From Candidatus Parcubacteria bacterium (GTDB lineage: Bacteria; Patescibacteriota; Minisyncoccia; Phycocordibacterales; JAACPR01), in NCBI GenBank assembly GCA_041158505.1, contig JBEBBG010000015.1:12642-76641 (forward strand): 64,000 nt of DNA, written 5' to 3'. Positions 11,014 through 37,817 of the stretch are shown one piece after another (positions within the stretch are counted from its first letter, which is position 1; the number at the start of each line of letters is the position of its first letter). A model generated the notes under the pieces. That model searched no databases, had not been told where the DNA came from, and worked only from the letters and a program-made list of their open reading frames with translations. Both the position numbers and the translations under genes were made by a program.

Positions 11014-11149
11014 TGGAGTGGGATAGATCTATTGGGTTTGCTTTCCAATCAATCGGAGAAGCATTTGCCAGAATATTAACACAAAAACAGTGTTTGTCAA
11101 TACAAACAAACCACAATCCCCCATTCTCCCAAAATCCCAAACACACCGC

Positions 11150-19706: not shown

Positions 19707-20807
19707 CTACTTATTGAGCGGCATTACGAGGTACAAGAATGTTGGGTCGTTCACCCCACGAATAACAACTGGTTTGGTACGACCATTAAACATCAAAACA
19801 ATACTGTCTGAGTTAATAGAACCAAACGCATCGCTCACGTACTTGTGATTAAAACTAATCTCCACGGCCTCTCCGCGCAGTGTTGCATCGACAACATTTC
19901 TGTTCTCACCCTTGTCGACATTTTTCGACGTGAGCTCAAAAACACCGTCATCCGGTCGAATAGACACAGTGACCTGATTAAAGCTGTCTGAGAAGAGATT
20001 TGAGAGTTTTAGGGCCTGTACAAGATCCTGTTTGAGCACCGTAACCTCTGTCGTGTTGTCTTTTGGAATAATCTGCTGATAGTCAGGAAAGTTTCCGTCC
20101 ACAATCCTGGTCATAAGGTACACTCCGTCGTGAACAAATGCCACCTGACCACTCTCGAAACGAACCTCGATGTCTGCCTGTACATCATCAAAAACTCGAA
20201 TGATTTCAGCGACGTTTCGATGAGGAATAAGGACACTTTCGAACTGGTCAACCTCCCTCGCTTCAATTCGCTTCTCAGCAAGTCGAAACGAGTCCGTAGC
20301 AACAAACATCAGGTTTCCATCCTTTGGGTATAAGTACACACTCGAAAGCTCTGGTTTCATACTTGAAACCGAAGCACTGTACCAAACCGACTTGAGACCA
20401 TGGATGAGCATTGGGGCAGATATTTTGCAGGTATGCACATTCTCAAGTTGTGGGATTGTTGGAAAATCTTCGTGAGAAAGAGCTTTGATTGTTGTTTCGT
20501 TGTGGCTTGAGGTAATAGTGAGGTTTTGATTTTGAACCTCAAGCGTGATGGTTTCGTGATCAGAAACGTTTGACAGAAATTGAACAAAAAGACCACCAGG
20601 AACCGCAACGACTCCTTCCCGTTCTACCTTTACGGGTACAGACGCTTCAAGACCTAGATCAAGGTTTGTCGCCTTAATATGAAGCTTTGAACCTTTCGCC
20701 TCTAGTAGTACACATGCCAACACTGGCAACGTGGCGTTTTTGCTCGTGATACGATCCGCCTTACTTACCATCGACTGCACTTTTTCCTTCGAGCAAACAA
20801 TCTTCAT
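19707..20807 (-). CDS. dnaN: DNA polymerase III beta sliding clamp
   Basis: 366 aa; MKIVCSKEKV...LPVLACVLLEAKGSKLHIKATNLDLG is a beta-clamp N-terminus; three-domain length. Confidence 0.9.
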   Translation of the reverse strand: MKIVCSKEKVQSMVSKADRITSKNATLPVLACVLLEAKGSKLHIKATNLDLGLEASVPVKVEREGVVAVPGGLFVQFLSNVSDHETITLEVQNQNLTITSSHNETTIKALSHEDFPTIPQLENVHTCKISAPMLIHGLKSVWYSASVSSMKPELSSVYLYPKDGNLMFVATDSFRLAEKRIEAREVDQFESVLIPHRNVAEIIRVFDDVQADIEVRFESGQVAFVHDGVYLMTRIVDGNFPDYQQIIPKDNTTEVTVLKQDLVQALKLSNLFSDSFNQVTVSIRPDDGVFELTSKNVDKGENRNVVDATLRGEAVEISFNHKYVSDAFGSINSDSIVLMFNGRTKPVVIRGVNDPTFLYLVMPLNK

Positions 20808-21077
20808 ACCTGTTGATAATTAATCTTTTAAACCCAACTACTGTCTCTATTAGGACTGTGGATATGTGTATAACCTGCGGATAGTGTTATTTTACAAGCT
20901 TATTTTGTCCCCACCGAACTGCGTTTGTGTGGGGATAGTTTTGAACTTGTTTGGGATAACGAGCAGTATCCTCTAGCTTACCTACATTTATCCAGTTCTC
21001 AAGCAACCGATTTCCCCTAGTAATCCACAAATATCCCCAATACTTTGCCCTAAAATCAACAACTTATCCACATCTTA
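20808..21077. promoter_or_regulatory. DnaA-box cluster in the dnaA-dnaN spacer (oriC candidate / dnaN promoter region)
   Basis: Perfect TTATCCACA at 21064-21072; 1-mismatch boxes TGTGGATAT at 20857-20865 and TAATCCACA at 21021-21029; weaker boxes at 20876, 20951 and 20988. Confidence 0.55.
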
Positions 21078-22436
21078 TTAGAGCATTGCCCTAATCTGAT
21101 TAAGCTGCTGGTTGAGAAGCTGGTCGTTTTTGAGGTCGTTTTTCATCTTTTCACAAGAGTGAATAACGGTTGTGTGGTCCCTTCCCCCAAGCTTCTCTCC
21201 AATTGTTGGGTATGAGGTATTGAAATCCTCACGGAGGATGTACATGGTTATTTGTCGTGGTCGAACTACCTCCTTTCGGCGTGTTTTGTCGCAAATGTCG
21301 TCTGGGTTAATGTTGTAGAAGTCTGCAACGATTTTAATGAGGTCTTTAATTGAGACCATTTTCTTTGGTTTTGCACTGTTTTTAATGAGGTCTTTAACAT
21401 CATTAAGGTTTAGTTCACGGTTTTTAAGCTGGGATTGGCACGCGATAGAGTTAATAACGCCCTCAAGCTCACGGATGTTTCCTTCAATGCTCGTTGCTAG
21501 GTACTCAAGGATGTCGTTTGAAAGAACGATGTTATTTTGAGCCATTTTTGCATTTAAAATCGCGATACGAGACTCTGTGTCTGGTTTTGGAATGTCCACG
21601 ATCATACCCTGGTTGAAGCGTGACTTAAGCCTGTCTTCAAGGCCTGGAATGTATGACGGGTGCTTATCTGAAGAGAAAACAATCTGCTTGTTGTTGTCGT
21701 AGAGGGTGTTGAAAAGGTGGAAGAGCTCTTCTTGGGTTTTATCTTTATCTGAAAGAAACTGGATATCATCCATGATTAAAACGTCGTATTTTCGGTACTT
21801 TTCTTTAAATGCGAGCCCTTTGTTTTGTTGAATAGCGGCAATGTACTCAGAGGTAAATTTCTCTGAGGTTAGATAAAAAACCTTTTTTGATCGATCTTGC
21901 TCTTTGATTTTATTACCAATTGCTTGAATGAGGTGTGTTTTGCCGTGACCGGTGCTTCCGTATATGAAAAGTGGGTTGTATACGATTCCTGGCTGCTTAA
22001 TGATCGCCTGTGCGGCAGCGTGTGCAAGTTCGTTGAAAGAGCCAATAATAAAGGTTTCAAAGGTGTACCGAGGGTTGAGGTTGTCGTCCTTGTTGATGTA
22101 GTAGTCTGACAAAGGAAGCTCTCCCCCATCACGATTTTCTCGTTTGATTGGTTTTGGTTTCTGGTTGCGCGCCTTCTCGATGTTTGCAACAACAAATTCA
22201 ACAGCTCGAATGTCGTCGGTTTGATCGCGAAGTGTTTTAAGGATGGTTTTACCGTATTTGTTGAAAAGCCAGTCTTTTACAAAGGTGTTTGGAACACCAA
22301 CAATTGCTACACCATCATCAATTTTGACTACAAAAGTGTCTTTAAACCAGGTTGCAAAGTTTGCTTTAGATACAGTTACCTCAATAGATGCGAGTGCATT
22401 CTCCCAAAGTGTTTTGCTGTCTAAGGTAACTGACAT
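21078..22436 (-). CDS. dnaA: chromosomal replication initiator DnaA
   Basis: AAA+ GSTGHGKTHLIQAIGN and a C-terminal DnaA-box-binding domain; probable start MSVTLDSKTLWENAL (ATG at 22436). The track ORF extends to 22481. Confidence 0.9.
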   Translation of the reverse strand: MSVTLDSKTLWENALASIEVTVSKANFATWFKDTFVVKIDDGVAIVGVPNTFVKDWLFNKYGKTILKTLRDQTDDIRAVEFVVANIEKARNQKPKPIKRENRDGGELPLSDYYINKDDNLNPRYTFETFIIGSFNELAHAAAQAIIKQPGIVYNPLFIYGSTGHGKTHLIQAIGNKIKEQDRSKKVFYLTSEKFTSEYIAAIQQNKGLAFKEKYRKYDVLIMDDIQFLSDKDKTQEELFHLFNTLYDNNKQIVFSSDKHPSYIPGLEDRLKSRFNQGMIVDIPKPDTESRIAILNAKMAQNNIVLSNDILEYLATSIEGNIRELEGVINSIACQSQLKNRELNLNDVKDLIKNSAKPKKMVSIKDLIKIVADFYNINPDDICDKTRRKEVVRPRQITMYILREDFNTSYPTIGEKLGGRDHTTVIHSCEKMKNDLKNDQLLNQQLNQIRAML

Positions 22437-22549
22437 ACGTTGCAACGGTAAACGTGTGCCTATTATATACTCGAGCGCCAACTGGGAAACTTGTTAAAAA
22501 AACTAGTTTATGTTAAAACGATGTTCACGAGACGAAATAAGTAACGCAT

Positions 22550-22705
22550 ATGTCTGTAACATACAAACCAAAGCGACGAAAGCGAGCAAAGACCCACGGG
22601 TTCTTGGTTCGCTCACGAACCCCAGGAGGAAAGCGAGTACTCGCTCGACGCCGACAAAAGGGGCGAGCAAAGCTCACCGTGTCTCGAAAACGAGCGTCAT
22701 AATAA
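22550..22705 (+). CDS. rpmH: 50S ribosomal protein L34 (below the ORF-track length cutoff)
   Basis: ATG at 22550; [50 protein letters not shown] (51 aa) is a textbook L34 sequence; TAA at 22703-22705. Confidence 0.85.
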
Positions 22706-22706
22706 A

Positions 22707-22745
22707 GGCAAAAACCGCGCTTGGCGCGGTTTTTGCCTTTTTCTT
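22707..22745 (+). terminator. Rho-independent terminator/attenuator between rpmH and rnpA
   Basis: ggcaaaaaccgcgc-ttg-gcgcggtttttgcc followed by tttttctt. Confidence 0.7.
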
Positions 22746-22757
22746 AACTCCACCACT

Positions 22758-23099
22758 ATGCTGAGAAAGAAAGACAGACTCACCACAGAATCTTTTACTG
22801 CTGTTATTGCATCAGGAAAAACATATAGGGTTCCCACGGGCTATCTTAAAGTTATTCCTGGGGATGTATCAGCTTTTGCAATCGCTGTACCTAAAAAGGT
22901 GGTAAAGTCGGCAGTTCGAAGACATCTCATAAAACGACGCGTTTTTAGTGCGTTGCGACCCATTGCTGGTCAGTTCCCTGTGGGACACTATGTGTTTTTT
23001 GTAACTTCAGAGAGTGCTGCTTTTTCGGTCGATGCTTTTACAGAGATGCTGACAGAACTTGCAAAAACGGTTGCCACAAGCCTCCAAAGTCGCCTATAA
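22758..23099 (+). CDS. rnpA: ribonuclease P protein component
   Basis: 113 aa basic protein (LRKKDRL...FAIAVPKKVVKSAVRRHLIKRRV) in the conserved rpmH-rnpA-yidC position. Confidence 0.8.
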   Translation: MLRKKDRLTTESFTAVIASGKTYRVPTGYLKVIPGDVSAFAIAVPKKVVKSAVRRHLIKRRVFSALRPIAGQFPVGHYVFFVTSESAAFSVDAFTEMLTELAKTVATSLQSRL

Positions 23100-23111
23100 T
23101 GGCAAGACGCC

Positions 23112-23870
23112 ATGAAAGAACTCTTCAACACTATTTTCTTTGAACCTCTCTACAATGCGCTTATTGGGCTCATTGACATTATTCCTGGTGGCGACGTTGG
23201 CTTTGCGGTTATTGTTCTTACCATTCTCGTTAAGTTGATTCTCTTTCCCCTCTCAAAAACATCTGTCCGTACACAGCTTAAAATGCGCCAACTCCAGAAG
23301 CCGCTCGAGGAAATTAAAGAAAAATACAAAGATAATCGTGAGGCCATGGGTCGCGCGATGCTTGATTTGTATAAGGAGCACAAGCTCAACCCTTTTTCTG
23401 GTTTTCTTCTCATTTTGATTCAGATTCCCGTTGTGCTCGCCCTCTACTGGGTAATTCTTAAAGGAGGACTGCCGGTTATTAATGAAACTATTCTCTACTC
23501 TTTCATTCCAAAACCAGAGACGATCAACATGCTCTTCTTGGGAATTTTTCATATTGCTGAAGCAAAAAGCGTCGTGCTTGCGGTACTCGCTGCCCTTACA
23601 CAACACTTGCAAGCCCGCTTCTCATTCCCTAAACCTGAACCTCGCAAAGAGGGGGTAACCCCAACGTTTCAAGATGAGATGATGCGTGGCATGAGCGTCC
23701 AGGTAAAGTGGGTTCTTCCTGTTTTTGTTTTCTTTATTTCATTCGGACTCGCCTCAGTGGTGGCACTCTACTGGACTGTCTCAAACCTATTCATGATTGG
23801 TCAGGAGTTGTATATCCGACGGACAATTAAGAAGCCTGCAGAAGAAGAGTCGCAAGCAGTGAATGCATAA
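23112..23870 (+). CDS. yidC: membrane protein insertase YidC (short Oxa1-type)
   Basis: 252 aa, five TM segments, conserved LxxFPL and PFSGFLLILIQIPV helix; conserved synteny after rnpA. Confidence 0.85.
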   Translation: MKELFNTIFFEPLYNALIGLIDIIPGGDVGFAVIVLTILVKLILFPLSKTSVRTQLKMRQLQKPLEEIKEKYKDNREAMGRAMLDLYKEHKLNPFSGFLLILIQIPVVLALYWVILKGGLPVINETILYSFIPKPETINMLFLGIFHIAEAKSVVLAVLAALTQHLQARFSFPKPEPRKEGVTPTFQDEMMRGMSVQVKWVLPVFVFFISFGLASVVALYWTVSNLFMIGQELYIRRTIKKPAEEESQAVNA

Positions 23871-23880: not shown

Positions 23881-25200
23881 CTACCTCGTGCCGCGCGCCT
23901 TGGTGATGTCGACACTCCAGAGTGTTAGATCCTTTTTATTTACAAAGAGAATAAACTCATCACGAGGGCTGACCGTGATTTTGGTGATGTCGAAGCTTTG
24001 TGGAACCTCTTCTTTGTTGATAAGGAGGGCTTCGTATGATTCGTCTTTCAAGTTGACCTTCCAAAGGTTGTCGGCAAACGTGCTTACCCCTTGGTACCAC
24101 GTTTCTGGGTACGCGACGCGCTCCGGTTGATCTGTTGCCCCACAAAAGACTACGTCGGCACTTGTTTGGCTAAAGGTACATTTTTCAGGAAGTGTTTTAA
24201 TACCGAGCCGCTTTGATTGTCCGTTCGTTATGTTGTATGCGTAGAGCTCCAAATCGTTGCTACGTGCAATTGAATACAGCATCCAGGTCTTTCCTGGGTT
24301 TGTGAGTGTTGTGAGCCCTGGTGTGTCTCCAAGGAGCTTCTGGAGGCTCTGGTTGGCACCAATGAGGTAGGCAAAGCCGTTTTCACGAGAATCTGCCTTT
24401 GTTGTGATGATACGGTCAGTGTTGTTTACCTGCTGCACAATCCACTGTGTAAAAGGAGATTCATGCAAAATACGCTTTGCTTGGTCTTTGAGGTCGGCCG
24501 CGATAATAGTGCTGCCCCCTGCACTGTTCTCAAGTACGTAGCTGATGTTTGTTGCCCCAATATCTGCAGACACAACGTTGCGTGGAAGGTATACCCCTTC
24601 AAGTGAGTAGCCGTCCGCAATAATTTGGAAGGTGTCTGGCGATGTCGTGCTCTTGCTTGTTACTTTACCAATGAGTGTTTCAACGGTTTCTTCATCTTCT
24701 GCAACATACTGGACGAGCGCGTGTGTTCCGTCTGGACTAAATTTTGTGTACGAGACCTTAGGGATGGTGGTGTTAGAAAGACGTGTCTGTGTTAATGAGT
24801 TTTCTCGGGCCTCGTAGAGGTGGCCGGTTGCTCGTTCAATGTATCGAAAGGTTGTGATGGTAAACGCCCGGCTTTCCTCAACACCCTCATCAGAGATGTA
24901 TGTTTCAGAAGATCCTGTTGGGCGTTCAAACGCTACCGCACCAGCTACAGGGACTTGCGATAGTTGTCGAACACGGGGAATGCTCGCTGTTCCTGGTTGC
25001 TGTGTTGTGCTGTTTGGAGTCAGCTCCCCTTCTGCGCCGATGCCATTATTAATATCTACTGGGAAAAAGGATTCACTCCGACCGCTGTCGGTATATGTGC
25101 TTTGTGGCGCATCACCCCGGAAGAAAAAGAGCCATAGTAAAAAACCAATAAAGGCAGCAACAATAACAAAGAGAGACCAACCTAAAATACGTTTTACCAT
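23881..25200 (-). CDS. membrane-anchored beta-propeller (TolB/PD40-like) protein; last gene of the T4SS-like operon
   Basis: N-terminal TM (WSLFVIVAAFIGFLLWLFFF), repeated FSPDGT / LYSIA-type beta-propeller strands. Confidence 0.45.
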   Translation of the reverse strand: MVKRILGWSLFVIVAAFIGFLLWLFFFRGDAPQSTYTDSGRSESFFPVDINNGIGAEGELTPNSTTQQPGTASIPRVRQLSQVPVAGAVAFERPTGSSETYISDEGVEESRAFTITTFRYIERATGHLYEARENSLTQTRLSNTTIPKVSYTKFSPDGTHALVQYVAEDEETVETLIGKVTSKSTTSPDTFQIIADGYSLEGVYLPRNVVSADIGATNISYVLENSAGGSTIIAADLKDQAKRILHESPFTQWIVQQVNNTDRIITTKADSRENGFAYLIGANQSLQKLLGDTPGLTTLTNPGKTWMLYSIARSNDLELYAYNITNGQSKRLGIKTLPEKCTFSQTSADVVFCGATDQPERVAYPETWYQGVSTFADNLWKVNLKDESYEALLINKEEVPQSFDITKITVSPRDEFILFVNKKDLTLWSVDITKARGTR

Positions 25201-25239
25201 ATGGAGTTATTATACCTTTAAAAAAAGTATGTGAGCGGA

Positions 25240-25953
25240 TTAACGAACAGGTCCGATTGGAATACTTCCAAATGGAAGGAGTTCAAGCTGCAGGTTGCCC
25301 GTCGCCCCGCTTGTAAGTTCGAGTTCTCTTCCAACGGCTTCTGAGATGAGGAGCTCGTCATCGGTGCTGCGGTGATCGATTTCTGCGACGACTGATCGCC
25401 CTGTGTTTTTATTTGTAATTCGAACAACCTGTGAGGCAAGGTAGCGATTAGCGATACCTGTATCTGCTATTTCTGGGAAGTTTGCAATACGTGCGCTCGT
25501 GCTGTCTGGGTAAGCGATAAAGTATTCTGCCGCTGGAATCCGGTCACGTACCAATTTGCCGCTTACAAGCCCGACTTCATCATACCCGTGCATTCCTCGG
25601 CTATCTCCTTGTGTGTATGCAACACGCTCCCCTGCTAGATTTGTTGCAAAGTAGTACTGGTTAGAGCCTTCTGTTGCTGCCAAGGTGAGGTCTCCTGTTG
25701 CCGCCGGGTTTTTAATCAAGGCGTACTCGGTTCCTCGCTCAAGTAGTGTCCTAATATCTGATGGGCCACCATAGTAACGAACGGTAATACCGCCAGCCAC
25801 CGTTGGTGTCTCTACAACTTCGCTAAATGCCTCACGTTGCTCCACAAAAGGCTCTGGGGCCGGCGTGGCGTCTCTTAGAAGCATATAGCCGATTGCAGCT
25901 AATCCACCAATGATGCCGGCAATACTTGCGATTATCCAGAAACGTTCATTCAT
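25240..25953 (-). CDS. RlpA-like double-psi beta-barrel protein, membrane anchored (putative lytic transglycosylase)
   Basis: N-terminal TM; VRITNKNTGRSVVAEIDHRS...DDELLISEAVGREL matches the RlpA DPBB core (VxVTNxxNGRSVVVRVNDRGP...IDLSxAA). Confidence 0.5.
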   Translation of the reverse strand: MNERFWIIASIAGIIGGLAAIGYMLLRDATPAPEPFVEQREAFSEVVETPTVAGGITVRYYGGPSDIRTLLERGTEYALIKNPAATGDLTLAATEGSNQYYFATNLAGERVAYTQGDSRGMHGYDEVGLVSGKLVRDRIPAAEYFIAYPDSTSARIANFPEIADTGIANRYLASQVVRITNKNTGRSVVAEIDHRSTDDELLISEAVGRELELTSGATGNLQLELLPFGSIPIGPVR

Positions 25954-25956: not shown

Positions 25957-26394
25957 CTAAAAACCAAGGTCCACAATGAAATCTCCAGGACCTCCCGTTC
26001 CCAAGATGAGGTTGAGGACATAAATACAAACAAGGGCTATAGCGAGACCGCCAAGTGCTGCTGTAATTCTGTCTTTTCCTTCTGATTTACCAAACAACGA
26101 CTCGGTTCCCATATATTGAACTCCTCCAACTACAAGCATGATGACCGCAAGAATAATGGTAATACTGACAAGCCATTTGAAAAGCTGAGCCAGCATCTGT
26201 GGCAGCGAACCCCCAAAGTTGACACCGCTAATTGACTGGTACCCACCTCCCCCTTGAATGTTCTGTTGCTCAGGGCTGACAGGCGCTTCTTGTGCATGAA
26301 GCACCGCAACTCCTTGCACAAAGAGCAATGATGCAACACAAAACGCGGTCACTCCTTTTTTAAAATACGGTAACATTGCCTGTTTGAAGTTCAT
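25957..26394 (-). CDS. VirB2/TrbC-like pilin candidate
   Basis: 145 aa: about 33-aa signal peptide (cleavage after HAQ/EA), then two hydrophobic helices (LFKWLVSITIILAVIMLVVGGV and ITAALGGLAIALVCIYVLNLIL) separated by a short loop: T4SS pilin architecture. Confidence 0.45.
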   Translation of the reverse strand: MNFKQAMLPYFKKGVTAFCVASLLFVQGVAVLHAQEAPVSPEQQNIQGGGGYQSISGVNFGGSLPQMLAQLFKWLVSITIILAVIMLVVGGVQYMGTESLFGKSEGKDRITAALGGLAIALVCIYVLNLILGTGGPGDFIVDLGF

Positions 26395-27412
26395 TTTCTA
26401 GGGTTTCATCTCCAACAACATCTAGTGCAAAGTTAATCTTAGCATCTTGTAAGATGTTACTCAGGTGGTTGGTCCCCACATTAATTCTTGAAATACCACT
26501 TTTCGCCTTTCCTCTGTTTGTAAAGGTGAGCTTCGATCCAAGCGTTGGTAGATCAATTGGTTTTTCATTCTCTGTCCAGGAATACTCGATTGAGGCATCA
26601 TCACGGGATGATGCAGAAAAGAAGTAAGGAATAGCTACTAAACCAACCTCCTCCCTGTCAAAACGGAATCGTGAAGTAATTGCTCGTTCAAAAAGGTTTC
26701 CAAAAAGAGGGTTGCTCTCATACACGAGCACGGAAGTGTTTTTTGGTGTGACTTCGATTCTTTTCTGTGCTTGCACGCCCCCATTTACCGTCTCCACCAC
26801 TACAGTTACAAAGAAAGGGGTTGGAGCAAGGTTTCCAACAAAACTAATTGTATCTTTTCCAACACCTGATGCTTGCTGAAGTACTTGCCCATTTTTTTCC
26901 CATGTGTAGACAAGTTCTTTTGAAGAGATTTTTGTCCCACCCGTACGGATGTCTGGAATTGCCGCAATTGTCACAAGGGATTGTGGTGTGAAAAGAGACC
27001 TTCCTTTATAGAGCGGGGGTGTATAGGTGTCTGCTTCAACAAGCAAATCAACTGCCCCTGGAGTAAGGGTTATGCTGTCTTCATATGTTTTTCCATTTGA
27101 ACCAACAACACGAACTGAAACTGTTTGTGTTTGCCCAACTGCTGGTGTTGAAAAAATGAAAGTTCGAAGACCCAGCCCTGACGAGGTCTGACCGTCGCTC
27201 GTGTTCCAGGTTATGGTCGAGCGCCCAAGATCGATTGCGTAATTTTCTACTGTTGCTGTCACACTACTGTTTGCTGAGGGGATGCTTGGGCTTAGGGTGG
27301 TTGAAAGAGATCCGGTAAAAATATCTGGAGCAATTTGAGCTTTTGCGGCAGGTACGCCGAGTAAGAACAAAAACGCCAGTATGATCAAATAAAAAGCGGC
27401 GCGCTTAAACAT
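26360..27412 (-). CDS. secreted protein of unknown function (T4SS-like cluster)
   Basis: ATG at 27412 gives MFKRAAFYLIILAFLFLLGVPAAKA signal peptide; Ser/Thr-rich, beta-rich mature part. The track ORF is N-extended to 27448. Confidence 0.5.
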   Translation of the reverse strand: MFKRAAFYLIILAFLFLLGVPAAKAQIAPDIFTGSLSTTLSPSIPSANSSVTATVENYAIDLGRSTITWNTSDGQTSSGLGLRTFIFSTPAVGQTQTVSVRVVGSNGKTYEDSITLTPGAVDLLVEADTYTPPLYKGRSLFTPQSLVTIAAIPDIRTGGTKISSKELVYTWEKNGQVLQQASGVGKDTISFVGNLAPTPFFVTVVVETVNGGVQAQKRIEVTPKNTSVLVYESNPLFGNLFERAITSRFRFDREEVGLVAIPYFFSASSRDDASIEYSWTENEKPIDLPTLGSKLTFTNRGKAKSGISRINVGTNHLSNILQDAKINFALDVVGDETLENELQTGNVTVF

Positions 27413-27482
27413 ACATCCATTGTAGCAGAGATAAAAGCGTGGTCTCAACTAGTTTGCACGCAGGGTGTTCGTGTTTTCAAAA

Positions 27483-28049
27483 CTAGGCAGCTGTTCTGCT
27501 AGAAACGTACGCATCAATGTTTTGATTAAGTCTTGCAACTTTTTTCGGAACAAACCTTTGAACCTCATCCAAAATAAACCAGAAAGCCTTTACTACTTTT
27601 GTGTGGTGATAGTGAACAGAGAGAATCAAAAACGTGTTGGCGGTGATGACGTCGTTAAAAGGGATGGCATCACTGATTGCAAAAAGTACAAGCATGAGCA
27701 TTATTTTTCGAAGGATAATCTTCTGAGTTATCCTGCTTATCGTGCCGCTTTCTTTTCCAAAAAACCAGAAAAAATTTATAACCCAAGTTAGTATTTTAAA
27801 AATCCAGTAAACAACAACACCAACACCTGTTAACGAAAGAAGGGACGCCGCTATAGAGAGGGTGTCAAAAATTGCATTTATTAAAACAATAAGTGTTGGG
27901 AATGGTGGTAGCTTTGGACGGTTTTCTAGAAGTTGAATAGACGCATCCCGATCAATATCAGTCGCAAATGTTTCTTTAAAGCGCCCCTGAAACTCTCTAA
28001 GGTGACGTTGGCTAGAACGAGCGTGGCGCACTATATTTCCGTCAGGCAT
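27483..28049 (-). CDS. polytopic membrane protein (T4SS-like cluster)
   Basis: Three to four TM segments (TLIVLINAIFDTLSIAASLL, VVVYWIFKILTWVINFFWFF, IMLMLVLFAI). ATG at 28049 (MPDGNIV); the track start at 28064 is GTG. Confidence 0.45.
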   Translation of the reverse strand: MPDGNIVRHARSSQRHLREFQGRFKETFATDIDRDASIQLLENRPKLPPFPTLIVLINAIFDTLSIAASLLSLTGVGVVVYWIFKILTWVINFFWFFGKESGTISRITQKIILRKIMLMLVLFAISDAIPFNDVITANTFLILSVHYHHTKVVKAFWFILDEVQRFVPKKVARLNQNIDAYVSSRTAA

Positions 28050-28053
28050 ACCC

Positions 28054-29925
28054 CTATCGTACACCCTTAATCTCTAGTCCACCACGAAGAGCTTCTGGAT
28101 TTGCCATACCACCAGATGCGCGGAGTTCTTCTTTTGCACGCTTAATTTGCAGCACCTGTGATGGGTCTGAGGTGATGATCTGGTCTTCAGTGTATGAGGC
28201 GATAATTTTAATCGCAATGTGCTTGATGCCAGCAAAGAAGATTCCCTCTCCCACTCCAGACTCAAGGAGAAGATACTTCTCTTCCTCGGTGAGGTTAAAG
28301 GTTTGCTGAATCATATCGATTGCAGTCGGTGATTGTTTCAAGAGGAGCTGGATTGATGAGTTGGTGATGATCGGCATACCGTATGGCGATCGAAGGAAGT
28401 CCTCAACGTCTTGGGTAATGGTAGACATACCGAGATAGTATTTTCGTCCTCGTTTTGCAAGCCCAAAGAGGAACGACGCGGTGTCGTCTGATTTCATCAT
28501 CCACCACGCCTCATCGATTACGAGCAGTCGCTTTTTGAGCTCTTTGCGCACAGCATTCCAAATGAAGTGCGTCACAAGGTACATTGCAACCGGCTTAAGT
28601 TCATCTTCCATGTCTCGAAGCGAGAACACGATGAAGCGCTTGTTTACGTCGATGTTTGTTGGTTTGTTGATGAAACCTGCCCAGGTACCACGTGTGTACT
28701 TTGAAAGCTTTTGAGCCATACTCTCCCCTCCCTCCATGCCGGAGAGCACATACTCGAAGTCAGAAAGAAGTGGTGGTTCAATATTTGAGAAATCACTTTC
28801 GGGAGTAATGTCTTTAAGCGCGTACGTTTCAGAAATCGCGCGATCAACGAGCGCATCTTCCTCAGGGGTGAGTCCACCAAGCATGAGTCGGAAAAGACCA
28901 ACAAGGTTCACAATATTTGATCGGAGCACGTCACCTGCAGATTCATCTGGTGTTGGTGGTGCAAGGTCAAACGGGTTGATGTGGTGATCTGAAGTAAGAG
29001 AAATATTGAAGTAGCGCCCGCCTGTTGCTTCCGCAAGGAATTCATATTCACGTTCCGGGTCGATTACAATGACGTCGGTGTCGAGCATCAGGGTGCGCAA
29101 GATCTCGAGCTTTGATGCGTACGATTTACCAGAACCAGCCTTTGCAAAGGTAACTGAGTTGTAGTTTTCAAGACTGAATCGGTCAAAGAGGACGAGCGAG
29201 TTGTTGTGTCGGTTAATACCAAAGAGAATTCCCTTATCCGAGGTAAGGTCAAACGAGATGAATGGAAAGAGGCTCGAGAGTGGTGCTGAGTTGAGCTTTG
29301 AATGCACGCCGAGAAGATCTTGCCCTGTTGGAATAACGGTCTTAAATGCCTCCTCCTGCTGGAAGAGTGCAGGCTTTACGTACACCAACTTTGCTTCGAG
29401 AATCGACTTTACCTCAGAATCGAACTTGTCGAGCTCATCTTTGTTGTCCGCATAGATGCTGATATAGAGACCAACATCAAAGATTTTCTCTTGTGCCTGC
29501 TGGAGGTTGTCACGGAGAATTTCAAGGTCTTGGTATGCGGTGTCGAGTACAGGATCGCGTACAAGCCCCTTCTCTTCTCGGGTGTGAATCTGGCTCTGCA
29601 CTTCGGCTACTTTCTTTTTAAATTGTCGAAGGATGGTTGCGGTATCGATTGGGTGCACAAAAATCGATACATCAAATACTTTGTCGAGGTTGATGATTGG
29701 TGCAAACCACGAGTCTGAAAGGAAGCGTGGGTACGAGATAACGAAGAACGTGCGCACCATTTTGTCACCAAGGTTGATGTCACGAGGGCTCATCTTGAGC
29801 GCTGAAGGCGCAATCACGTCTTGTAGCTCAAGCACGCCCGCCTCGTAAATTTCTTGTGGAAGAAATGACGTAATGTCAGGTGTTTTTGGAGCTTCCTTTT
29901 TCTTTAGAAAATCAAAGAGGGCCAT
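28054..29925 (-). CDS. T4SS ATPase VirB4/TrbE/PrgJ family, ATPase portion
   Basis: VirB4 N-region RTFFVISYP...FVHPID; Walker A FAKAGSGKSYA; Walker B LLVIDEAWWM; C-terminal TrbE-type domain. Starts at an ATG one codon after the in-frame TAG that ends the upstream ORF. Confidence 0.8.
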   Translation of the reverse strand: MALFDFLKKKEAPKTPDITSFLPQEIYEAGVLELQDVIAPSALKMSPRDINLGDKMVRTFFVISYPRFLSDSWFAPIINLDKVFDVSIFVHPIDTATILRQFKKKVAEVQSQIHTREEKGLVRDPVLDTAYQDLEILRDNLQQAQEKIFDVGLYISIYADNKDELDKFDSEVKSILEAKLVYVKPALFQQEEAFKTVIPTGQDLLGVHSKLNSAPLSSLFPFISFDLTSDKGILFGINRHNNSLVLFDRFSLENYNSVTFAKAGSGKSYASKLEILRTLMLDTDVIVIDPEREYEFLAEATGGRYFNISLTSDHHINPFDLAPPTPDESAGDVLRSNIVNLVGLFRLMLGGLTPEEDALVDRAISETYALKDITPESDFSNIEPPLLSDFEYVLSGMEGGESMAQKLSKYTRGTWAGFINKPTNIDVNKRFIVFSLRDMEDELKPVAMYLVTHFIWNAVRKELKKRLLVIDEAWWMMKSDDTASFLFGLAKRGRKYYLGMSTITQDVEDFLRSPYGMPIITNSSIQLLLKQSPTAIDMIQQTFNLTEEEKYLLLESGVGEGIFFAGIKHIAIKIIASYTEDQIITSDPSQVLQIKRAKEELRASGGMANPEALRGGLEIKGVR

Positions 29926-29928: not shown

Positions 29929-30570
29929 CTAATTGTGTGGTAATGGTTTCTCAACATCACCTGGATTAAAGAGTCGGTAAAAGATTTCAATCACCTCTTC
30001 GGTGCCAAGTTGCACTGCGCGAATACCGCTGCGGACGATTCCAGACCGCACAACGGCGATACGCTGTTCAAGCTGGCTGCGTGCTTCCTCAAAATCTTCA
30101 GTCTTCATGTTTGCGTCTTTTTTGCCACCAAACGGATTGCTTACCTTTTTGCCGCGAACATCAATCGTTGGTGGTGTGTACGGAACTGTAATGTAAAAGG
30201 TCTTGGTCATAATGTTGGTGCGCTCAGTAAACGCTTGGATGAATCCAATGTACTCTTTGATTTGCACGCGCATGAGGTCGTTAATTTGCTCTCGCTCGCG
30301 AGCTTCAAGCATTGCTACGTATGGACGAATGTCGAGACGTCTCGACTGGATGAAGATTTGAACCGAGAAATTGAGCGAGTTGAGAAACTGTTGGAATTGG
30401 AAAATGATTGCACTCTGCTCCTCTTCTGATTTGAGCGCAAAGTTGATTGAAGAGGTCATGAGGATTGCGCGCATTGAACCATCCTTGAGCACAAGAATAC
30501 CGTCACGCACTTCACGCACGGGGACAAAGTCCTGTGTTGTTTTTGAGTTTGCTGCTGCCATATCGTGCAT
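29929..30570 (-). CDS. VirB4-family N-terminal domain protein; same frame as the ATPase ORF, separated by a single TAG
   Basis: VPVREVRDGILVLKDGSMRAILMTSSINFALKSEEEQSAIIFQFQQFLNS matches the conserved N-terminus of Gram-positive VirB4-like ATPases; frame continuity with 28054..29925 checked by coordinates. Confidence 0.5.
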   Translation of the reverse strand: MHDMAAANSKTTQDFVPVREVRDGILVLKDGSMRAILMTSSINFALKSEEEQSAIIFQFQQFLNSLNFSVQIFIQSRRLDIRPYVAMLEAREREQINDLMRVQIKEYIGFIQAFTERTNIMTKTFYITVPYTPPTIDVRGKKVSNPFGGKKDANMKTEDFEEARSQLEQRIAVVRSGIVRSGIRAVQLGTEEVIEIFYRLFNPGDVEKPLPHN

Positions 30571-30605: not shown

Positions 30606-31043
30606 TTACTGACGTGTGCGCGGATCAACGTCCTGGAGTGTTTGCAACGTCTCGTGAATATCGAGTCCCCACGATAAATCTTTGAGCTTACTGTTTGTTA
30701 CTTTTGGCACCTCTTGCGTAACGTACTGAATGACTTCGGCCGCTTTCTTCTCAGGTGTTTTTTCCCGTTTTTTCCAGAGGTATAACTTTGGTGAAAAGAT
30801 GAAACGAAACGCTGTTTCGAGGACCACAACAAGCGGCCGATTGTTTACTTGGTAAAAGGCAAAGCCAAAAAAGAGGAGTACTACTGGTAAGCCAATGACA
30901 ATTGCTAGAACCTTGGGCATGGTAGTCCAAAAGATGAAGGCGAACGCCAACCCCGCAGCCGAGTACAGGAACTGTTTAAGGGTGAGTGGTCCAAAAATCT
31001 TATCTTCTACTTCAAGGAATTGTGGTACTTGGTATTTTGCCAT
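30606..31043 (-). CDS. PrgI-family (VirB3-like) small membrane protein
   Basis: MAKYQVPQFLEVEDKIFGPLTLKQFLYSAAG then two TM helices: the PrgI-family signature (VPxDLxxEDKIFGxLTLRQ) and the canonical position immediately upstream of VirB4. Confidence 0.6.
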   Translation of the reverse strand: MAKYQVPQFLEVEDKIFGPLTLKQFLYSAAGLAFAFIFWTTMPKVLAIVIGLPVVLLFFGFAFYQVNNRPLVVVLETAFRFIFSPKLYLWKKREKTPEKKAAEVIQYVTQEVPKVTNSKLKDLSWGLDIHETLQTLQDVDPRTRQ

Positions 31044-31913: not shown

Positions 31914-33980
31914 CTATTCTTCTTTTTTATCACCCTTCGCGGCTTTAAGTGCTTTTATGATGTCGTATTTAACATCACGTTCTGCTTTAGCGAGTTCCTT
32001 TGCAATCGTTTTACCAGCAGCTGTTCGAGCAGGCTGCACCCATTTTAACTTACCAGCACCGCTTCGATTAAGCTGATCCCTATAGGTTTCAATGTAAACA
32101 TTCTTACTCTTATTGTATTTCTCTTTTGCTTCTCGAACGTCTTTCTTGGCAGTAGCGATTGATGCTTTTGAAGCATTAGTATCAATGAGGGTTTGGAGAG
32201 TTGCTTCCTTTGCATCAAGGTCTGCTTTATTTGGCTTAACAATATCATTACTGTCTGATACTTGCCCGATTGCTTCTGCTGCAAAGTTTGTAATTTTTTC
32301 TCGATTACTCTTAATGCTCGATGCATATCCTCCCTTACCCCCTGCAGCTCCAAATGCTTTATCCCCTACACCGGTTGCACTTGCGACTCCGGTAAATGTT
32401 TTTGAATTTCGAGCATCAAATGAGGCGCTGCCAATTCCTCGAGTTGTTTGAAGAGCAAATGCACCAATACGAGATTTTGCAGCCCACTCTTTAAATCCAT
32501 CTTTATCGGCAGCCCAGTTTGCAACGCGTCCAGGGAATTGTCTTCCAGCAAAAGCTGCGGTTCCAATAGCTGCACCACCAACTTTTGATGTAATGTTGCC
32601 GCTAAGTTTTGCAAGCGCTTTGTTTCCCATTGAGTGCATTTGTTTTGCTGCATAGAGGGCTCCAAGAAAGAGGCCAATAACGATACTGTATCGAACTAAA
32701 GGACTTGCTGCTGATGCAACCATTTTTACTATTGTTGATTGGACGCCCGCACTTGCCGCCGAAAAACCAACCTGAATACCAGAGGGGCTTGAAGTTTTTA
32801 CTATATCGAGTATTCCCTCTCCTCCGCTTCCTCCCATAAGCTTAAAGGCGATGAGTAGAAATAGTAGAAAAACAGGCAATGAAAAAGCATTTCCTATGAG
32901 TGAATCCCACCACTCCTGCGACATTTTTTTTGTCATTGGAAAGGCTTTTCCTACAAAACCAATTGGAGACAGAATAAGTAGAAAAACAATGATGAGGGTT
33001 CTCGCAATCAACATGAAAGCCCCAATAAACATCACAATCGCAAGTATGATGACGACCGCAATGGTCATTACAACACCAACACTTACCTGTATGAGTTGAT
33101 CAGTCGCACCGCTGTAGGTACTTTCATTGTTGCCAACTAATCCTGCACTATCCTTGCTTATTTTTAAGGCGTCTGTCTTTTCTAGTATAAAAGAACTTAC
33201 ACTTCTATCTCCAAGAACATTTTCAATGCTCTTCATGACAGAAAGAGCAAATTGGTTTGAGACGTCAACGATGACAGCCGCAAAAAAGAAGCTAAAGTTT
33301 ACGAGTAGGGCGGCAATAATGACATTTTTGAGAGCCTTTTTTGCTTCGCCGCTCTCTGTTTGTAAAATAAGGTTAATAGCGACGTAGAGTAAGATAAAGA
33401 CAAAACCAATGTTTACTAAGTCTCTAAAGATTTTCCATGCTTCATCTACAGACGCTCGAACGTTGCCACCCTCAGCAACCATAGAACTTAGACCGTAGGT
33501 ACTGATATTGATTGCTGTGTCGAGAAAAAAACCAGCAATGTAGAGTGTTAGTGATGCAACCCAGGTAATTGCAACTCCTATAGCACTAATTCCTGTCGTA
33601 AGACCTTTTAAAACAGTGGCAACTGTTTTCTCTAAACCAGATTTTTTAACTGTTTCAACAGCCGCTGCCCCGTCGTTAAATGCGTTTACCGGGTTTAGAC
33701 CTCGACCAAGTGCGTTAAAGAAGCCTTGGGCGCCCTCTTGCCCACTAATGGCCTTATTGTAGGACGCATTTTTGTCTAAACCGTTTAAACGAGATTGTAT
33801 GTAGTCGTCAACTAGTGCGCTGCGCAAGCTTGGCGGAATATTTGCTTCTCCAAAAATTTGCTGGGCTTCTTGTGCGTAGTTTTGATTTTGGGCATTTGCC
33901 GTGCTCGGTGCGTTAACAAAAAAAAGTCCAAGTAATACAGTACACAAAAAAATATGTTGTAAAACTCGACGCGCTCTCAT
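31914..33980 (-). CDS. large polytopic membrane protein, VirB6/TrbL/PrgH-like candidate
   Basis: 688 aa: signal peptide, periplasmic N-domain, at least six TM helices in the central region, Lys-rich cytoplasmic tail. Assignment is by architecture and context, not sequence motif. Confidence 0.45.
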   Translation of the reverse strand: MRARRVLQHIFLCTVLLGLFFVNAPSTANAQNQNYAQEAQQIFGEANIPPSLRSALVDDYIQSRLNGLDKNASYNKAISGQEGAQGFFNALGRGLNPVNAFNDGAAAVETVKKSGLEKTVATVLKGLTTGISAIGVAITWVASLTLYIAGFFLDTAINISTYGLSSMVAEGGNVRASVDEAWKIFRDLVNIGFVFILLYVAINLILQTESGEAKKALKNVIIAALLVNFSFFFAAVIVDVSNQFALSVMKSIENVLGDRSVSSFILEKTDALKISKDSAGLVGNNESTYSGATDQLIQVSVGVVMTIAVVIILAIVMFIGAFMLIARTLIIVFLLILSPIGFVGKAFPMTKKMSQEWWDSLIGNAFSLPVFLLFLLIAFKLMGGSGGEGILDIVKTSSPSGIQVGFSAASAGVQSTIVKMVASAASPLVRYSIVIGLFLGALYAAKQMHSMGNKALAKLSGNITSKVGGAAIGTAAFAGRQFPGRVANWAADKDGFKEWAAKSRIGAFALQTTRGIGSASFDARNSKTFTGVASATGVGDKAFGAAGGKGGYASSIKSNREKITNFAAEAIGQVSDSNDIVKPNKADLDAKEATLQTLIDTNASKASIATAKKDVREAKEKYNKSKNVYIETYRDQLNRSGAGKLKWVQPARTAAGKTIAKELAKAERDVKYDIIKALKAAKGDKKEE

Positions 33981-34041: not shown

Positions 34042-35577
34042 CTATGTTCTGTCCCCTAGTATGCTAGATTGCTTTGAAGAATTAGGAAGAAGCTTTGACG
34101 GCGGCTTTGTTAGTTGTTCTTGAAGAGCATCCAAAAGCTCCTCACCCTTCTCGTCGATATTTACGAGGCGTTGCTCTGCTAATCCTATTCGGTTTTCTGA
34201 AACCATTTTGATAAAGCTGCCCGGAATCTCAACGTCCCCGGTGTCTTGATCTTTTTTGCTCAAATATCCGTCGTTCATCTCGTACTCAGCTAGTTGCAGG
34301 TTAATACTGTTTGCTTGAATAGTTTCAATTTCTGCTTGTGCAGATAAGAAGCGGAGTAAATCACTGTTGACTGGATTAAGCCGAACAGCCAGTGTGTCCC
34401 AAGGATTTTTGCTCTCTTGCTCCTGTTGCTTTTGCTGTTCATGAATAGGTACACCATATTCGCTGGCCATGAGATTTTCTACGACGGTGTCACCTTGGCT
34501 GCCTTGTTGAGATTTTTTATATTCATCAATAAAAGACTCGAAATGCATTTGGGATAGATCACTGAGTGCCTGAGGGAGATTTTGAACAAATGCAGGGTTA
34601 CCACCAAAAGCTGTGGTGATGTAATTCCCTGAGCTCTCCACAACCGCGGCGGCCATCGCATCAGCAACACAGTTATCTGCAGCGTCGTATGATTTACTAC
34701 TTCCTCCTGGTTCCCCCGCGTCTTTACGCACAAGTTCCCACACGTACGCGTTAATGGTGAGGGTGTCGACGGGGACAGCATATTCCCCTGTTGCTTGAGA
34801 TGTGTTGCTTGATAAGCCACTTCCTTCCCCTCCTCCAATACCACTGGTGGTTTCTTTGTTACACTCAGTTGTTGCTTCTGTAAGGCTTGTGGGTTTGCCG
34901 TCGCCATCCGCATCACCGGTTGCACGAATAATGTCGCCACCCTGCTCCGGCTTCTCTGGTTCGTTTATAGGAACTTCATTTGGTTCAAATTCCTGAGATT
35001 GACCAGCGTTTCCAAGAGGGCTGCCTCCCGAATTTCCTCCAAGTAAATTCTGGACTGCCTGCGGTACACCCCCCTGTCCTCCTTGCTGTCCTCCGCCAAG
35101 CAGGTTCCCTAACGGGTTATTCCCTCCTCCGGGTAGTTGTGGCAATTGTGGCAACTGCGGCGTACTTCCTCCTTGGTTACCAAGGTTAGGAAGATTCACA
35201 TCTGCTTTTACATCTACTTCACAGGTTGCTTCTGCGCGCTCCCCGTTTGAAACAACGATAACGGTTGCCTTTTTTGTGCCGTAGCTACCGTAGCTGGTAG
35301 TGACCTGGGGCTTATCAACTGTTGTAATATTTACGCCACGCCACCGATACGCAATTTTACTTTCTGTACCTCGAACAGTTGCTCGCCAGATTACTGGCTC
35401 ATCACGTCCAACCTCTGCTTTTGAGGGAGCACAGGTTACTTTAAGCGTCGTTGCTTGAGCGTACCCAAGGTGTGGCAACAGCTGCACAACAAGTAGACCA
35501 CCGAGAATGGTAACAACTAACCCGCTTAAAACGAGCGGCTTGTATAGGATTTTTGTTGTTTTTAGAAATCGTTCCAT
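34042..35577 (-). CDS. membrane-anchored protein with Gly/Gln/Pro-rich low-complexity linker (T4SS-like cluster)
   Basis: N-terminal TM, PQLPQLPQLPGGGNNPLGNLLGGGQQGGQGG repeat tract, globular C-terminal domain. Confidence 0.45.
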   Translation of the reverse strand: MERFLKTTKILYKPLVLSGLVVTILGGLLVVQLLPHLGYAQATTLKVTCAPSKAEVGRDEPVIWRATVRGTESKIAYRWRGVNITTVDKPQVTTSYGSYGTKKATVIVVSNGERAEATCEVDVKADVNLPNLGNQGGSTPQLPQLPQLPGGGNNPLGNLLGGGQQGGQGGVPQAVQNLLGGNSGGSPLGNAGQSQEFEPNEVPINEPEKPEQGGDIIRATGDADGDGKPTSLTEATTECNKETTSGIGGGEGSGLSSNTSQATGEYAVPVDTLTINAYVWELVRKDAGEPGGSSKSYDAADNCVADAMAAAVVESSGNYITTAFGGNPAFVQNLPQALSDLSQMHFESFIDEYKKSQQGSQGDTVVENLMASEYGVPIHEQQKQQEQESKNPWDTLAVRLNPVNSDLLRFLSAQAEIETIQANSINLQLAEYEMNDGYLSKKDQDTGDVEIPGSFIKMVSENRIGLAEQRLVNIDEKGEELLDALQEQLTKPPSKLLPNSSKQSSILGDRT

Positions 35578-37031: not shown

Positions 37032-37817
37032 CTACGCGCTCGCTAGGCAAAACCAGTCTGCCACACTGAGCGTTTCTGCTCGCCGTTCTGGTGCAATACC
37101 GCAGTTTGTAAGTTTTTCTGCTGCAATTACCCCTTTAAGGTTGCTGCCAAGGTGTTTTCGTTTGTGCGCAAAGCCGGCTTTTACAACGCTAAAGAAAACT
37201 GTTTCTGATATGTGCGCTGTATCAAAGGCGTGTGTTGTCACATGTGCGATATGCAAGATTGCAGAATCAACCTTTGGTGCAGGGGTAAATGAACCGCGCT
37301 TCACCGTTTCTATGTATGAAGGGGTTCCATACGCCTTGACCGCAACTGAGAGAATGCTCTCTTTCCCATCTCTTGCAACGATTCGTTCAGCAACTTCTTT
37401 TTGTACCAAAACGGTTGCGTGGGCTGGCCTTGGTGTCGTTCCTAAGTATCGCTCAAGCAGTGCTCCGGTGATGTAGTAAGGAATATTTGCTACGAGCGTA
37501 TAGGTTGTAGCCTTCGCGCGTTTCAAGAGCGCTCCAACATCAATGGTGAGTGCGTCGCCTTCAATCAGGAGGAGTTTGCCCGATGCGATTTCGTTAGCAA
37601 AGAGTGCCTCCAGTGGTTCAATGAGTTCCCGGTCTTTTTCAACAGCAATAACCGTTGCACCAGTGGCAAGGAGTTTTTTTGTTAGGGCACCTCGCCCAGG
37701 ACCAATCTCAAGAACAACATCGCCAGCGACAACGTGGGCGGCAGTGCACATACGGAGGAGTGCCCCCTCTGAGTTGAGAAAGTTTTGTCCAAGTGATTTT
37801 TTTGCTTTACCAAACAT
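37032..37817 (-). CDS. rsmA: 16S rRNA (adenine1518/1519-N6)-dimethyltransferase
   Basis: KSLGQNFL start, VLEIGPGRGALT SAM motif, NIPYYIT: KsgA family hallmarks. Confidence 0.85.
   Translation of the reverse strand: MFGKAKKSLGQNFLNSEGALLRMCTAAHVVAGDVVLEIGPGRGALTKKLLATGATVIAVEKDRELIEPLEALFANEIASGKLLLIEGDALTIDVGALLKRAKATTYTLVANIPYYITGALLERYLGTTPRPAHATVLVQKEVAERIVARDGKESILSVAVKAYGTPSYIETVKRGSFTPAPKVDSAILHIAHVTTHAFDTAHISETVFFSVVKAGFAHKRKHLGSNLKGVIAAEKLTNCGIAPERRAETLSVADWFCLASA

Follow-up and report, generated by a model that had tools for sequence, protein, structure and literature searches.

The T4SS gene cluster of a Candidatus Parcubacteria bacterium contains, in a stretch of 64,000 nucleotides of DNA that was analysed as a whole (the window), a small minus-strand open reading frame that the initial annotation had put forward as a VirB2/TrbC-like pilin candidate inside a Firmicutes-style, normally pilus-less cluster. 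The locus raises the question of whether this protein is a T4SS pilin and, if it is one, whether its presence in such a machine makes the system the unusual hybrid that had been suspected. The reading preferred here, with a probability of roughly 0.75, is that it is the single VirB2-superfamily pilin (PF18895 branch) of an origin-proximal, chromosomal T4SS of the type that is typical of Patescibacteria, and that it would work by the mechanism proposed below.

The ORF listing gives a minus-strand ORF of 145 aa exactly at 25957..26394, and it is a real gene on which purifying selection acts, not a chance ORF, since it has eight orthologues, pN values far below pS, and an identical gene order on other contigs. 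The eight orthologues, found among 5.8 billion proteins searched, share 54-74% identity with the window protein, with one more distant at 31%; for the closer orthologues Nei-Gojobori counts give pN of 0.13-0.30 against pS of 0.62-0.79, and pN stays far under pS in every pair with unsaturated dS (dN/dS approximately 0.1-0.2). An identical sequence is present among the same 5.8 billion proteins, annotated as 'MAG: hypothetical protein RL150_586 [Candidatus Parcubacteria bacterium]'. No second pilin copy was found in the window by hmmsearch of all six frames, and tblastn against 72,556 plasmids returned no match, so that known mobile elements give no hint of this pilin.

The start codon is likely the ATG at 26376, giving a protein of 139 aa, because orthologues lack a conserved upstream ATG and start instead with the Met of MLPYFKK; this Met (ORF residue 7) is the first residue in most orthologues of the alignment. 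A start at the upstream ATG at 26394 was rejected; this ATG is absent from the DNA of three orthologous contigs (L001, L006, and L007). The pilin gene starts within the upstream 362-aa gene, whose last 17 nt it shares, and the overlap is kept in the same three contigs, which suggests translational coupling. The parts of the gene are as follows, with residues numbered by the 145-aa ORF.

25957..26376, minus strand: VirB2-like T4SS pilin gene, likely true CDS, 139 aa plus stop (the longest ORF reaches the ATG at 26394, 145 aa)
26293..26376, minus strand: predicted Sec-type signal peptide, M7-A34, 28 aa, with K12 and K13 in the n-region and a hydrophobic core at 14-32
26194..26292, minus strand: Gly/Pro-rich mature N-terminal extension, Q35-M67, 33 residues, predicted disordered (pLDDT <50)
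26107..26193, minus strand: hydrophobic helix 1, core 68-96 (model helix 64-96), from hydropathy and AlphaFold2 (pLDDT approximately 81-85)
26068..26106, minus strand: turn and basic stretch, residues 97-109, with K103, the invariant G106-K107, and R109 (AlphaFold2 turn 97-99)
25990..26067, minus strand: hydrophobic helix 2, residues 110-135, from hydropathy (AlphaFold2 helix 100-130)
25960..25989, minus strand: C-terminal tail, G136-F145 (GPGDFIVDLGF), its C-terminal Phe F145 invariant in the ortholog alignment

Hydropathy in 15-residue windows resolves three hydrophobic segments in the ORF, at residues 14-34, 68-96 (peak 3.2), and 110-135 (peak 2.8); the first is directly preceded by Lys12-Lys13, and the second and third are separated by a hydrophilic stretch with K103, K107, and R109. 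The AlphaFold2 model, built on a 53-sequence alignment (mean pLDDT 68.6), consists of an N-terminal helix, a disordered Gly/Pro-rich segment, and the antiparallel helices 64-96 and 100-130, with pLDDT values of 74-85 across this hairpin. Signal peptidase I is predicted to cut after Ala34 (between ..VLHA and QE), a heuristic placement for which the -3/-1 rule was applied to the ortholog alignment alone; Ala at -1 is kept in all orthologues and a small residue at -3 in most. The predicted mature pilin would then comprise Q35-F145, or 111 residues. The pilin architecture that had been proposed at the outset, a signal peptide and two hydrophobic helices in about 110 mature residues, thus agrees with the hydropathy profile, the AlphaFold2 hairpin, and the predicted A34-Q35 junction. 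The resulting layout, with a cleavable signal peptide (predicted), two hydrophobic helices, and a short basic turn, is of the VirB2/TrbC type. The cleavage site of VirB2 gives a signal peptide of 47 aa, against which the 28 aa of the window protein are short.

Conservation among the orthologues extends beyond the hydrophobic segments. The N-terminal extension carries a motif of nearly invariant columns, Y52-Q-x-I55-S-G-x-x-F60-x-G62; a GG-x-x-Y that closes helix 1 is invariant; and the tail follows the pattern GTGGxGxFxVxxF, in which the terminal Phe is invariant. A lipoprotein anchored via Cys19 was considered and rejected, since a lipobox is lacking and conservation does not extend to this Cys. 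Head-to-tail cyclisation and C-terminal trimming by a TraF/LepB-like peptidase have no consensus motif, and Pfam and NCBIfam scans of the cluster proteins revealed no peptidase S26-like gene.

The sole Pfam match of the protein, PF18895 (T4SS_pilin), passes its threshold with 29.1 bits for the 145-aa ORF and 29.3 bits for the 139-aa form (GA 26.6), and covers profile positions 2-69 of 71 and ORF residues 61-132; 49 of the 53 aligned relatives pass this threshold as well. Since the margin of 2.5 bits is small, reciprocity was tested with an ortholog profile, which found 606 proteins at E<=1e-3. Among the 120 matches listed of these 606, nearly all carry PF18895, and NCBI names a few of them 'pilin'; the relatives with an organism name belong to Paceibacterota and Moranbacteria. 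For seven of the eight orthologues, no Pfam match is precomputed. When 1.84 billion cluster representatives were searched exhaustively with HMMER, 38,342 matched at E<=1e-3, of which 4,596 also reached E<=1e-10; the family is very large.

To the classical VirB2/TrbC proteins, the window protein is tied only transitively, through its relatives. The Pfam TrbC/VirB2 profile, which the initial annotation had named as a check, failed to recover it: PF04956 gave no match to the window protein at E<=0.1. The PF04956 threshold is passed by 13 of the 53 aligned relatives (best E 1.5e-11). One of these relatives, P0025, is found by the ortholog profile at E 1.5e-26 and has a PF04956 match of 36.0 bits (GA 27.9) at residues 14-81 and a PF18895 match at residues 15-80; in P0025 and in P0100 the two matches fall on the same residues. 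The VirB2/TrbC-like candidate is thus upheld by its own PF18895 match and by those relatives that pass PF04956 on the same stretch. Direct comparison by hhalign with a 30-sequence Agrobacterium/Rhizobiales VirB2 alignment, composed of relatives of the Agrobacterium T-pilin (its sequence checked against PDB 8cue), gave a probability of 11% and E 0.0028, a result of little power because the alignment is narrow (55-85% identity); a single VirB2 sequence gave 0.8%. Profile search found no pilin among PDB sequences, only a weak match to VirB6 (TrwI; E 0.07). The structure prediction that had been envisaged for comparison with VirB2/TraA yielded a helical hairpin, and fold comparison of such a two-helix hairpin is non-specific and does not discriminate.

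These results also bear on whether the protein could be a generic two-pass membrane protein without any T4SS role, matching the pilin profile through its hydrophobic composition. The PF18895 score just above threshold would fit such a protein, as would the cross-matching between two-TM families, the hhalign comparison with VirB2 that did not reach significance, and the non-specific fold searches; against it, PF18895 proteins are recovered by the ortholog profile with E-values of 1e-25 to 1e-30, and specific residues are invariant, among them the Gly-Lys close to the turn, the GG-x-x-Y with which helix 1 ends, and the terminal Phe. The fixed place of the gene in the T4SS block, held down to 31% identity, and the overlap of its start with the upstream cluster gene add to this, and a generic membrane protein is regarded as very improbable. 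Similarity to T4SS pilins and a two-helix hairpin were found in place of the unrelated, generic bitopic protein against which the candidate had been set; membership in the VirB2 superfamily, as part of the PF18895 branch, is highly probable.

The pilin gene lies in a run of twelve genes on the same (minus) strand, from 36527 down to 23881. These genes and the flanking block are listed here in the order of transcription of the cluster, the pilin gene itself having been described above.

34042..36527, minus strand: two syntenic head-of-cluster genes, for a 511-aa protein without family and a 321-aa bacterial TSP3-repeat protein
31914..33980, minus strand: candidate VirB6/TrbL-like polytopic membrane protein, 688 aa
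31056..31910, minus strand: conserved 284-aa cluster protein without family; orthologues of 239-329 aa in the same position
30606..31043, minus strand: PrgI/VirB3-family membrane protein (PF12666 PrgI, E 2.3e-10, 41.3 bits against GA 27)
29929..30570, minus strand: TrsD-like 213-aa protein, the separately encoded equivalent of the VirB4 N-terminal domain
28054..29925, minus strand: VirB4-type ATPase, C-terminal two thirds, of CD1110 / MPF-FATA type (NF045971, PF19044)
27483..28064, minus strand: conserved 193-aa polytopic membrane protein; orthologues of 188-202 aa in the same position
26360..27448, minus strand: conserved secreted 362-aa protein, overlapping the pilin start by 17 nt
23881..25953, minus strand: two conserved genes downstream of the pilin, for 237-aa and 439-aa proteins, each with an N-terminal membrane anchor
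19707..23870: origin-region genes flanking the cluster, dnaN, dnaA, rpmH, rnpA, and yidC, from Pfam matches

The genes around the pilin read as a monoderm-type T4SS (MPF-FATA), with a CD1110-type VirB4, TrsD, and PrgI. The VirB4 protein matches the NCBIfam equivalog NF045971 (conju_CD1110) at E 9.3e-109 and 364.7 bits (cut-off 325) and PF19044 at E 1.5e-24; the TrsD-like protein matches conju_CD1110 positions 2-120 and NF041427 TrsD (E 1.7e-07), both under cut-off, and its orthologues carry PF26593 TraC-like. Together with a PrgI match above GA, these scores confirm the PrgI/VirB4 context that the initial annotation had described. Its label of a Firmicutes-style cluster holds for the machinery and fails for the host, which is a member of the Patescibacteria (CPR) and not a Firmicute, because the identical protein belongs to a Candidatus Parcubacteria MAG. 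The VirB6-like candidate matches NF045848 MMCAP2_0566, a mycoplasma conjugal transfer family, at E 1.3e-07, under cut-off, and its orthologue in contig L006 has a faint PF04610 TrbL match; the TSP3-repeat protein matches PF18884 at E 8.9e-05, under GA, and the gene pair for the 511-aa and 321-aa proteins is also present in contigs L003, L005, and L006.

Six cluster proteins (511, 284, 193, 362, 237, and 439 aa) have no significant match across Pfam, NCBIfam, PHROGs, and PDB searches. They include both neighbors of the pilin: nothing significant was found for the 362-aa upstream protein in Pfam, NCBIfam, PHROG, or PDB, or for the 237-aa and 439-aa downstream proteins in Pfam or PDB, and PDB profile searches with the 362-aa and 439-aa proteins were likewise negative; PHROGs yielded nothing useful for seven cluster proteins. 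The 237-aa and 439-aa proteins share 58-83% identity with their orthologues on close contigs, and the 439-aa protein only 26% with that of the distant L004. A role of the 237-aa protein as RlpA/DPBB-like wall hydrolase, analogous to VirB1, was considered and dropped, with no Pfam match at E<=10 and no PDB match; its single-sequence AlphaFold2 model has a pLDDT of 42.9. Pfam and NCBIfam scans did not detect VirB1, VirB5, or VirB7-11, and no relaxase or coupling protein (T4CP) family was found among the 40 window ORFs scanned, which are the larger ones.

The cluster is chromosomal and located at the replication origin; this follows from the flanking genes, with yidC-rnpA-rpmH-dnaA-dnaN on one side and ksgA (37032..37817, Pfam) on the other, and from the minimum of cumulative GC skew at 18-20 kb of the window. 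The same gene order is shared by five other independent metagenomic or MAG contigs (L001/L002, L003/L004, L005, L006, and L007), and two further contigs (L008/L009) carry an identical pilin protein in the same order. It begins with the TSP3-repeat protein, the protein of approximately 500 aa, the VirB6-like protein, the protein of approximately 300 aa, PrgI, TraC-like/TrsD, and VirB4, and continues with proteins of approximately 200 and 355 aa, the pilin, and proteins of approximately 239 and 441 aa; yidC-rnpA-dnaA come next in most contigs. Since this order holds even where pilin identity is only 31% (L003/L004), the pilin is a fixed component of the machine and not a passenger. The location also speaks to the proposal that the T4SS exports or uses the protein as a two-TM effector, holin-like or pore-forming, instead of containing it as a structural subunit. 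Five of the 53 relatives have weak PF18303 Saf_2TM matches (best E 8.9e-4), and PHROGs add a weak match (E 0.0015), to a family of unknown function, which would suit an effector; the window protein itself lacks a Saf_2TM match, its predicted cleavable Sec signal peptide and the purifying selection beside an essential-type machine fit a structural role, and the window shows origin-region housekeeping genes and no phage or defence context. An effector is therefore held to be extremely improbable.

A pilin in a Gram-positive-style T4SS of Patescibacteria has already been described in 2023-2025 (PMC10633639, PMC12102498, PMC12857230). Gram-positive conjugative systems are the closest counterpart of the T4SS in the saccharibacterium Southlakia epibionticum, and the predicted pilin subunits within its cluster in strain ML1, SEML1_0006-0019, are essential (Wang et al. 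2023, PMC10633639); this is the only Patescibacteria species tested, and it cannot grow epibiotically without the pilin genes (PMC10633639; PMC12857230). In a search of 3,035 Patescibacteria genomes with PF04956, PF18895, and other profiles (Quinonero-Coronel et al. 2025, PMC12102498), 1,948 assemblies with VirB4 had VirB2-like pilins, in 1,135 of them near virB4; the VirB4 proteins group with the MPF-FATA class, TrsD, PrgI/VirB3, and VirB6 are widespread, and the T4SS cluster often adjoins dnaA, dnaN, rnpA, ksgA, and rpmH (PMC12102498). Table S3 of the same study places TrsD, VirB4, and a PF18895 VirB2 within a few genes of one another (PMC12102498). Gram-positive MPF-FATA systems, by comparison, have no VirB2 homologue and use adhesins instead (PMC12102498; PMC12857230), and a 2025 FEMS review counts the Patescibacteria as the sole exception to the absence of VirB2 from monoderm T4SSs, mentioning only a 'potential to elaborate conjugative pili' (PMC12857230).

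The window pilin matches these published descriptions point for point and is, within a known kind, an ordinary member that had not been named before. With the Patescibacteria pilins it shares the PF18895 family, the phylum, and the VirB4, TrsD, PrgI/VirB3, and VirB6-like partners, and with their T4SS clusters the neighborhood of dnaA, dnaN, rnpA, rpmH, and ksgA, as well as the lack of a recognised relaxase or T4CP among the 40 window ORFs scanned. The 'unusual hybrid' of the initial annotation survives in the sense that a pilin is indeed present in a monoderm-type, normally pilus-less T4SS; it is not unusual in this phylum, where the published surveys (PMC10633639, PMC12102498, PMC12857230) make it the rule. 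The PilB type IV pilus ATPase that had been noted near 11150 is also present, at 11090..12934 (PF00437, E 2.7e-121). The window differs from Saccharimonadia and Microgenomatia, where pilin arrays of 2-11 genes occur, in having a single pilin gene, and its ortholog group is divergent, with a Gly-rich N-terminal extension of 33 residues and a conserved, Phe-ended tail. CD1110-type VirB4, a TrsD-like protein, and a PrgI-family protein link the cluster to the Gram-positive MPF-FATA systems of pCF10 (Prg), pGO1 (Trs), and C. difficile CTn2 (CD1110); unlike these, it includes a pilin, sits at the chromosomal origin instead of on a mobile element, and has no recognisable relaxase or T4CP.

The TrbC/VirB2 pilins of diderm T4SS (PF04956; Agrobacterium VirB2, PDB 8cue/8exh) resemble the window pilin in the signal peptide, the hydrophobic hairpin, and the basic turn residue, and in the clustering of the gene with those for VirB3, VirB4, and VirB6; they are set apart by the missing direct PF04956 match, the hhalign probability of 11%, the monoderm host, and VirB1, VirB5, and VirB7-11 not being detected. 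Helical-hairpin pilins assembled by a VirB4-family ATPase are further known from F-type TraA and from the archaeal Ced and Ted systems (CedA1, TedC) of monoderm archaea, and the latter demonstrate that an outer membrane is not required for VirB2-type pili. To TraA, CedA1, and TedC, no sequence relationship of the window protein was detected, the PDB profile search having returned no pilin.

The following mechanism is modeled on VirB2 and TraA and on the essentiality of the pilin genes in S. epibionticum. The precursor would be inserted via Sec/YidC, and signal peptidase I would remove approximately 28 residues after Ala34. The 111-residue hairpins would then collect as a pool in the membrane, their two termini facing outwards and the basic turn (K103, G106-K107, and R109) lying at the cytoplasmic face. 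VirB4, presumably a hexamer split into the TrsD-like N-terminal piece and the CD1110-type C-terminal piece, would be docked by PrgI/VirB3 on the VirB6-like platform and would extract the pilin, probably with bound phospholipid; once extracted, the subunits could stack as a helical tube through the thin wall of the monoderm cell and reach towards the host, for contact or transport. In such a tube, the invariant Gly-Lys and the neighboring Arg may line the lumen or bind lipid head groups, and exposed positions may be taken by the Gly-rich N-terminus, which bears the YQxISGxxFxG motif, and by the tail that ends in Phe.

Whether a true extended pilus is formed is an even call; a long pilus, a short stalk, and a channel part would look alike in sequence. 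Pilus-less systems that keep a VirB2 homologue are known, for example Bordetella Ptl, for which a stalk or channel role has been proposed. By this precedent the window protein could be a VirB2 homologue that makes no extended pilus and only spans the wall as a short stalk or forms part of the T4SS membrane channel. The family and context evidence is equally compatible with such a role, and the single pilin copy in the window, the lack of VirB5-like or VirB1-like partners in Pfam and NCBIfam, and the literature, in which no published observation of a pilus was found for any Patescibacteria T4SS, would all suit it. The pilin family, however, is not only very large but fast-diversifying and includes tandem arrays (PMC12102498), which is better suited to a surface-exposed polymer, and the stalk or channel role is considered unlikely.

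A more far-reaching version of the pilin reading takes the window protein as representative of a distinct VirB2-like branch, of a single-copy Paceibacteria type, marked by the long, Gly-rich, exposed N-terminus, the YQxISGxxFxG motif, and the invariant-Phe tail, which maturation may remove or join. Such a pilin and the six cluster proteins without family would jointly build a true pilus through the monoderm wall that would be a conduit for uptake from, or exchange with, the host rather than a conjugation device. This proposal is speculative and should be regarded as rather doubtful.

For the reading preferred here, that of a single VirB2-superfamily pilin in a Patescibacteria-type T4SS, the practical value of the analysis is that a 'hypothetical protein' is re-annotated as a T4SS pilin, and that a compact reference cluster of 12 genes, half of them without any family, becomes available. 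The window provides a clean single-pilin example with fully conserved synteny and introduces no new principle; it falls under the one known exception to pilus-less monoderm T4SSs, a VirB2-type pilin in a Gram-positive-type system. The formation of a pilus and the nature of its cargo bear on how the CPR bacteria, ultrasmall and with little biosynthesis of their own, draw on their hosts.

The window pilin, a VirB2-like type IV secretion system (T4SS) protein, and its orthologues contain only one pilin domain, in contrast to the two tandem domains (four predicted helices) found within 170-330 amino acids in most of the more distant relatives (alignment A2, P0010-P0119); in some of these two-domain relatives, the N-terminal copy also matches TrbC/VirB2. 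Other matches of the profile built from the window pilin orthologues (P0121, P0122, P0123-P0130) carry many fused pilin hairpins within single open reading frames; P0121 has six pilin stretches in 552 amino acids, and the following protein matches both PF04956 (TrbC/VirB2) and PF18895 (T4SS_pilin):

L010 8001-13328 (NCBI GCA_975902405.1, contig CDLKIH010000037.1): P0122, 1,775 aa, 16 pilin stretches

Ribosomal protein L39e and Cas4 are among the neighbors of P0122 and point to an archaeal genome. The pilin arrays published previously consist of separate genes, not of poly-pilin reading frames (Quinonero-Coronel et al., 2025; PMC12102498).

Within the T4SS block of the window, the start codon of the pilin gene falls within the upstream gene for a 362-aa secreted protein, 17 nt from its end, and VirB4 is divided between two genes:

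26360-26376 (-): overlap of pilin start and upstream gene end, 17 nt, ATGTTACCGTATTTTAA
28054-30570 (-): VirB4 as two adjacent genes, N-terminal TrsD-like part (213 aa) and ATPase part (623 aa)
23881-25953, 26360-28064, 31056-31910, 34042-35577 (-): six conserved genes (439, 237, 362, 193, 284, and 511 aa)

Since the overlap is retained across loci of the same gene order (L001, L006, and L007), it suggests that the pilin and the 362-aa protein are translationally coupled. The two VirB4 genes are separated by a gap of 3 nt, and the two-gene arrangement is common to all related loci. Searches of Pfam, NCBIfam, PHROGs, and PDB sequences gave no significant match for any of the six conserved proteins, which are candidate lineage-specific counterparts of VirB8, VirB1, or VirB5. 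An assignment of the 237-aa protein as RlpA/DPBB-like was a guess without support.

The lowest point of the cumulative GC skew falls at 18-20 kb, adjoining dnaN/dnaA (region 18000-22500), consistent with a replication origin within approximately 2-14 kb of the T4SS genes. Elsewhere in the window, a reading frame overruns a tRNA gene:

59044-60126: MYG1/UPF0160 protein, longest reading frame
59174-59247: tRNA-Pro

The Pfam match of this frame starts only from residue 72; the true start is probably downstream of tRNA-Pro.

Further genes lie outside the T4SS block:

40002-41066 (strand opposite to the VirB6-like gene): wall hydrolase, LysM + Peptidase_M23
11090-12934: PilB, type IV pilus ATPase (T2SSE, E 2.7e-121)
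L001/L002 16383-19350: PilB and PilC-like genes

The hydrolase gene, approximately 6 kb from the VirB6-like gene, could encode the wall-opening enzyme of the T4SS; LysM and Peptidase_M23 domains are frequent in VirB1-like proteins of Patescibacteria (PMC12102498). PilB is separated from the T4SS block by approximately 11 kb in the window, and the PilB and PilC-like genes lie approximately 4 kb downstream of the same block in the locus pair L001/L002; therefore, the type IV pilus system and the T4SS are neighbors in this lineage.
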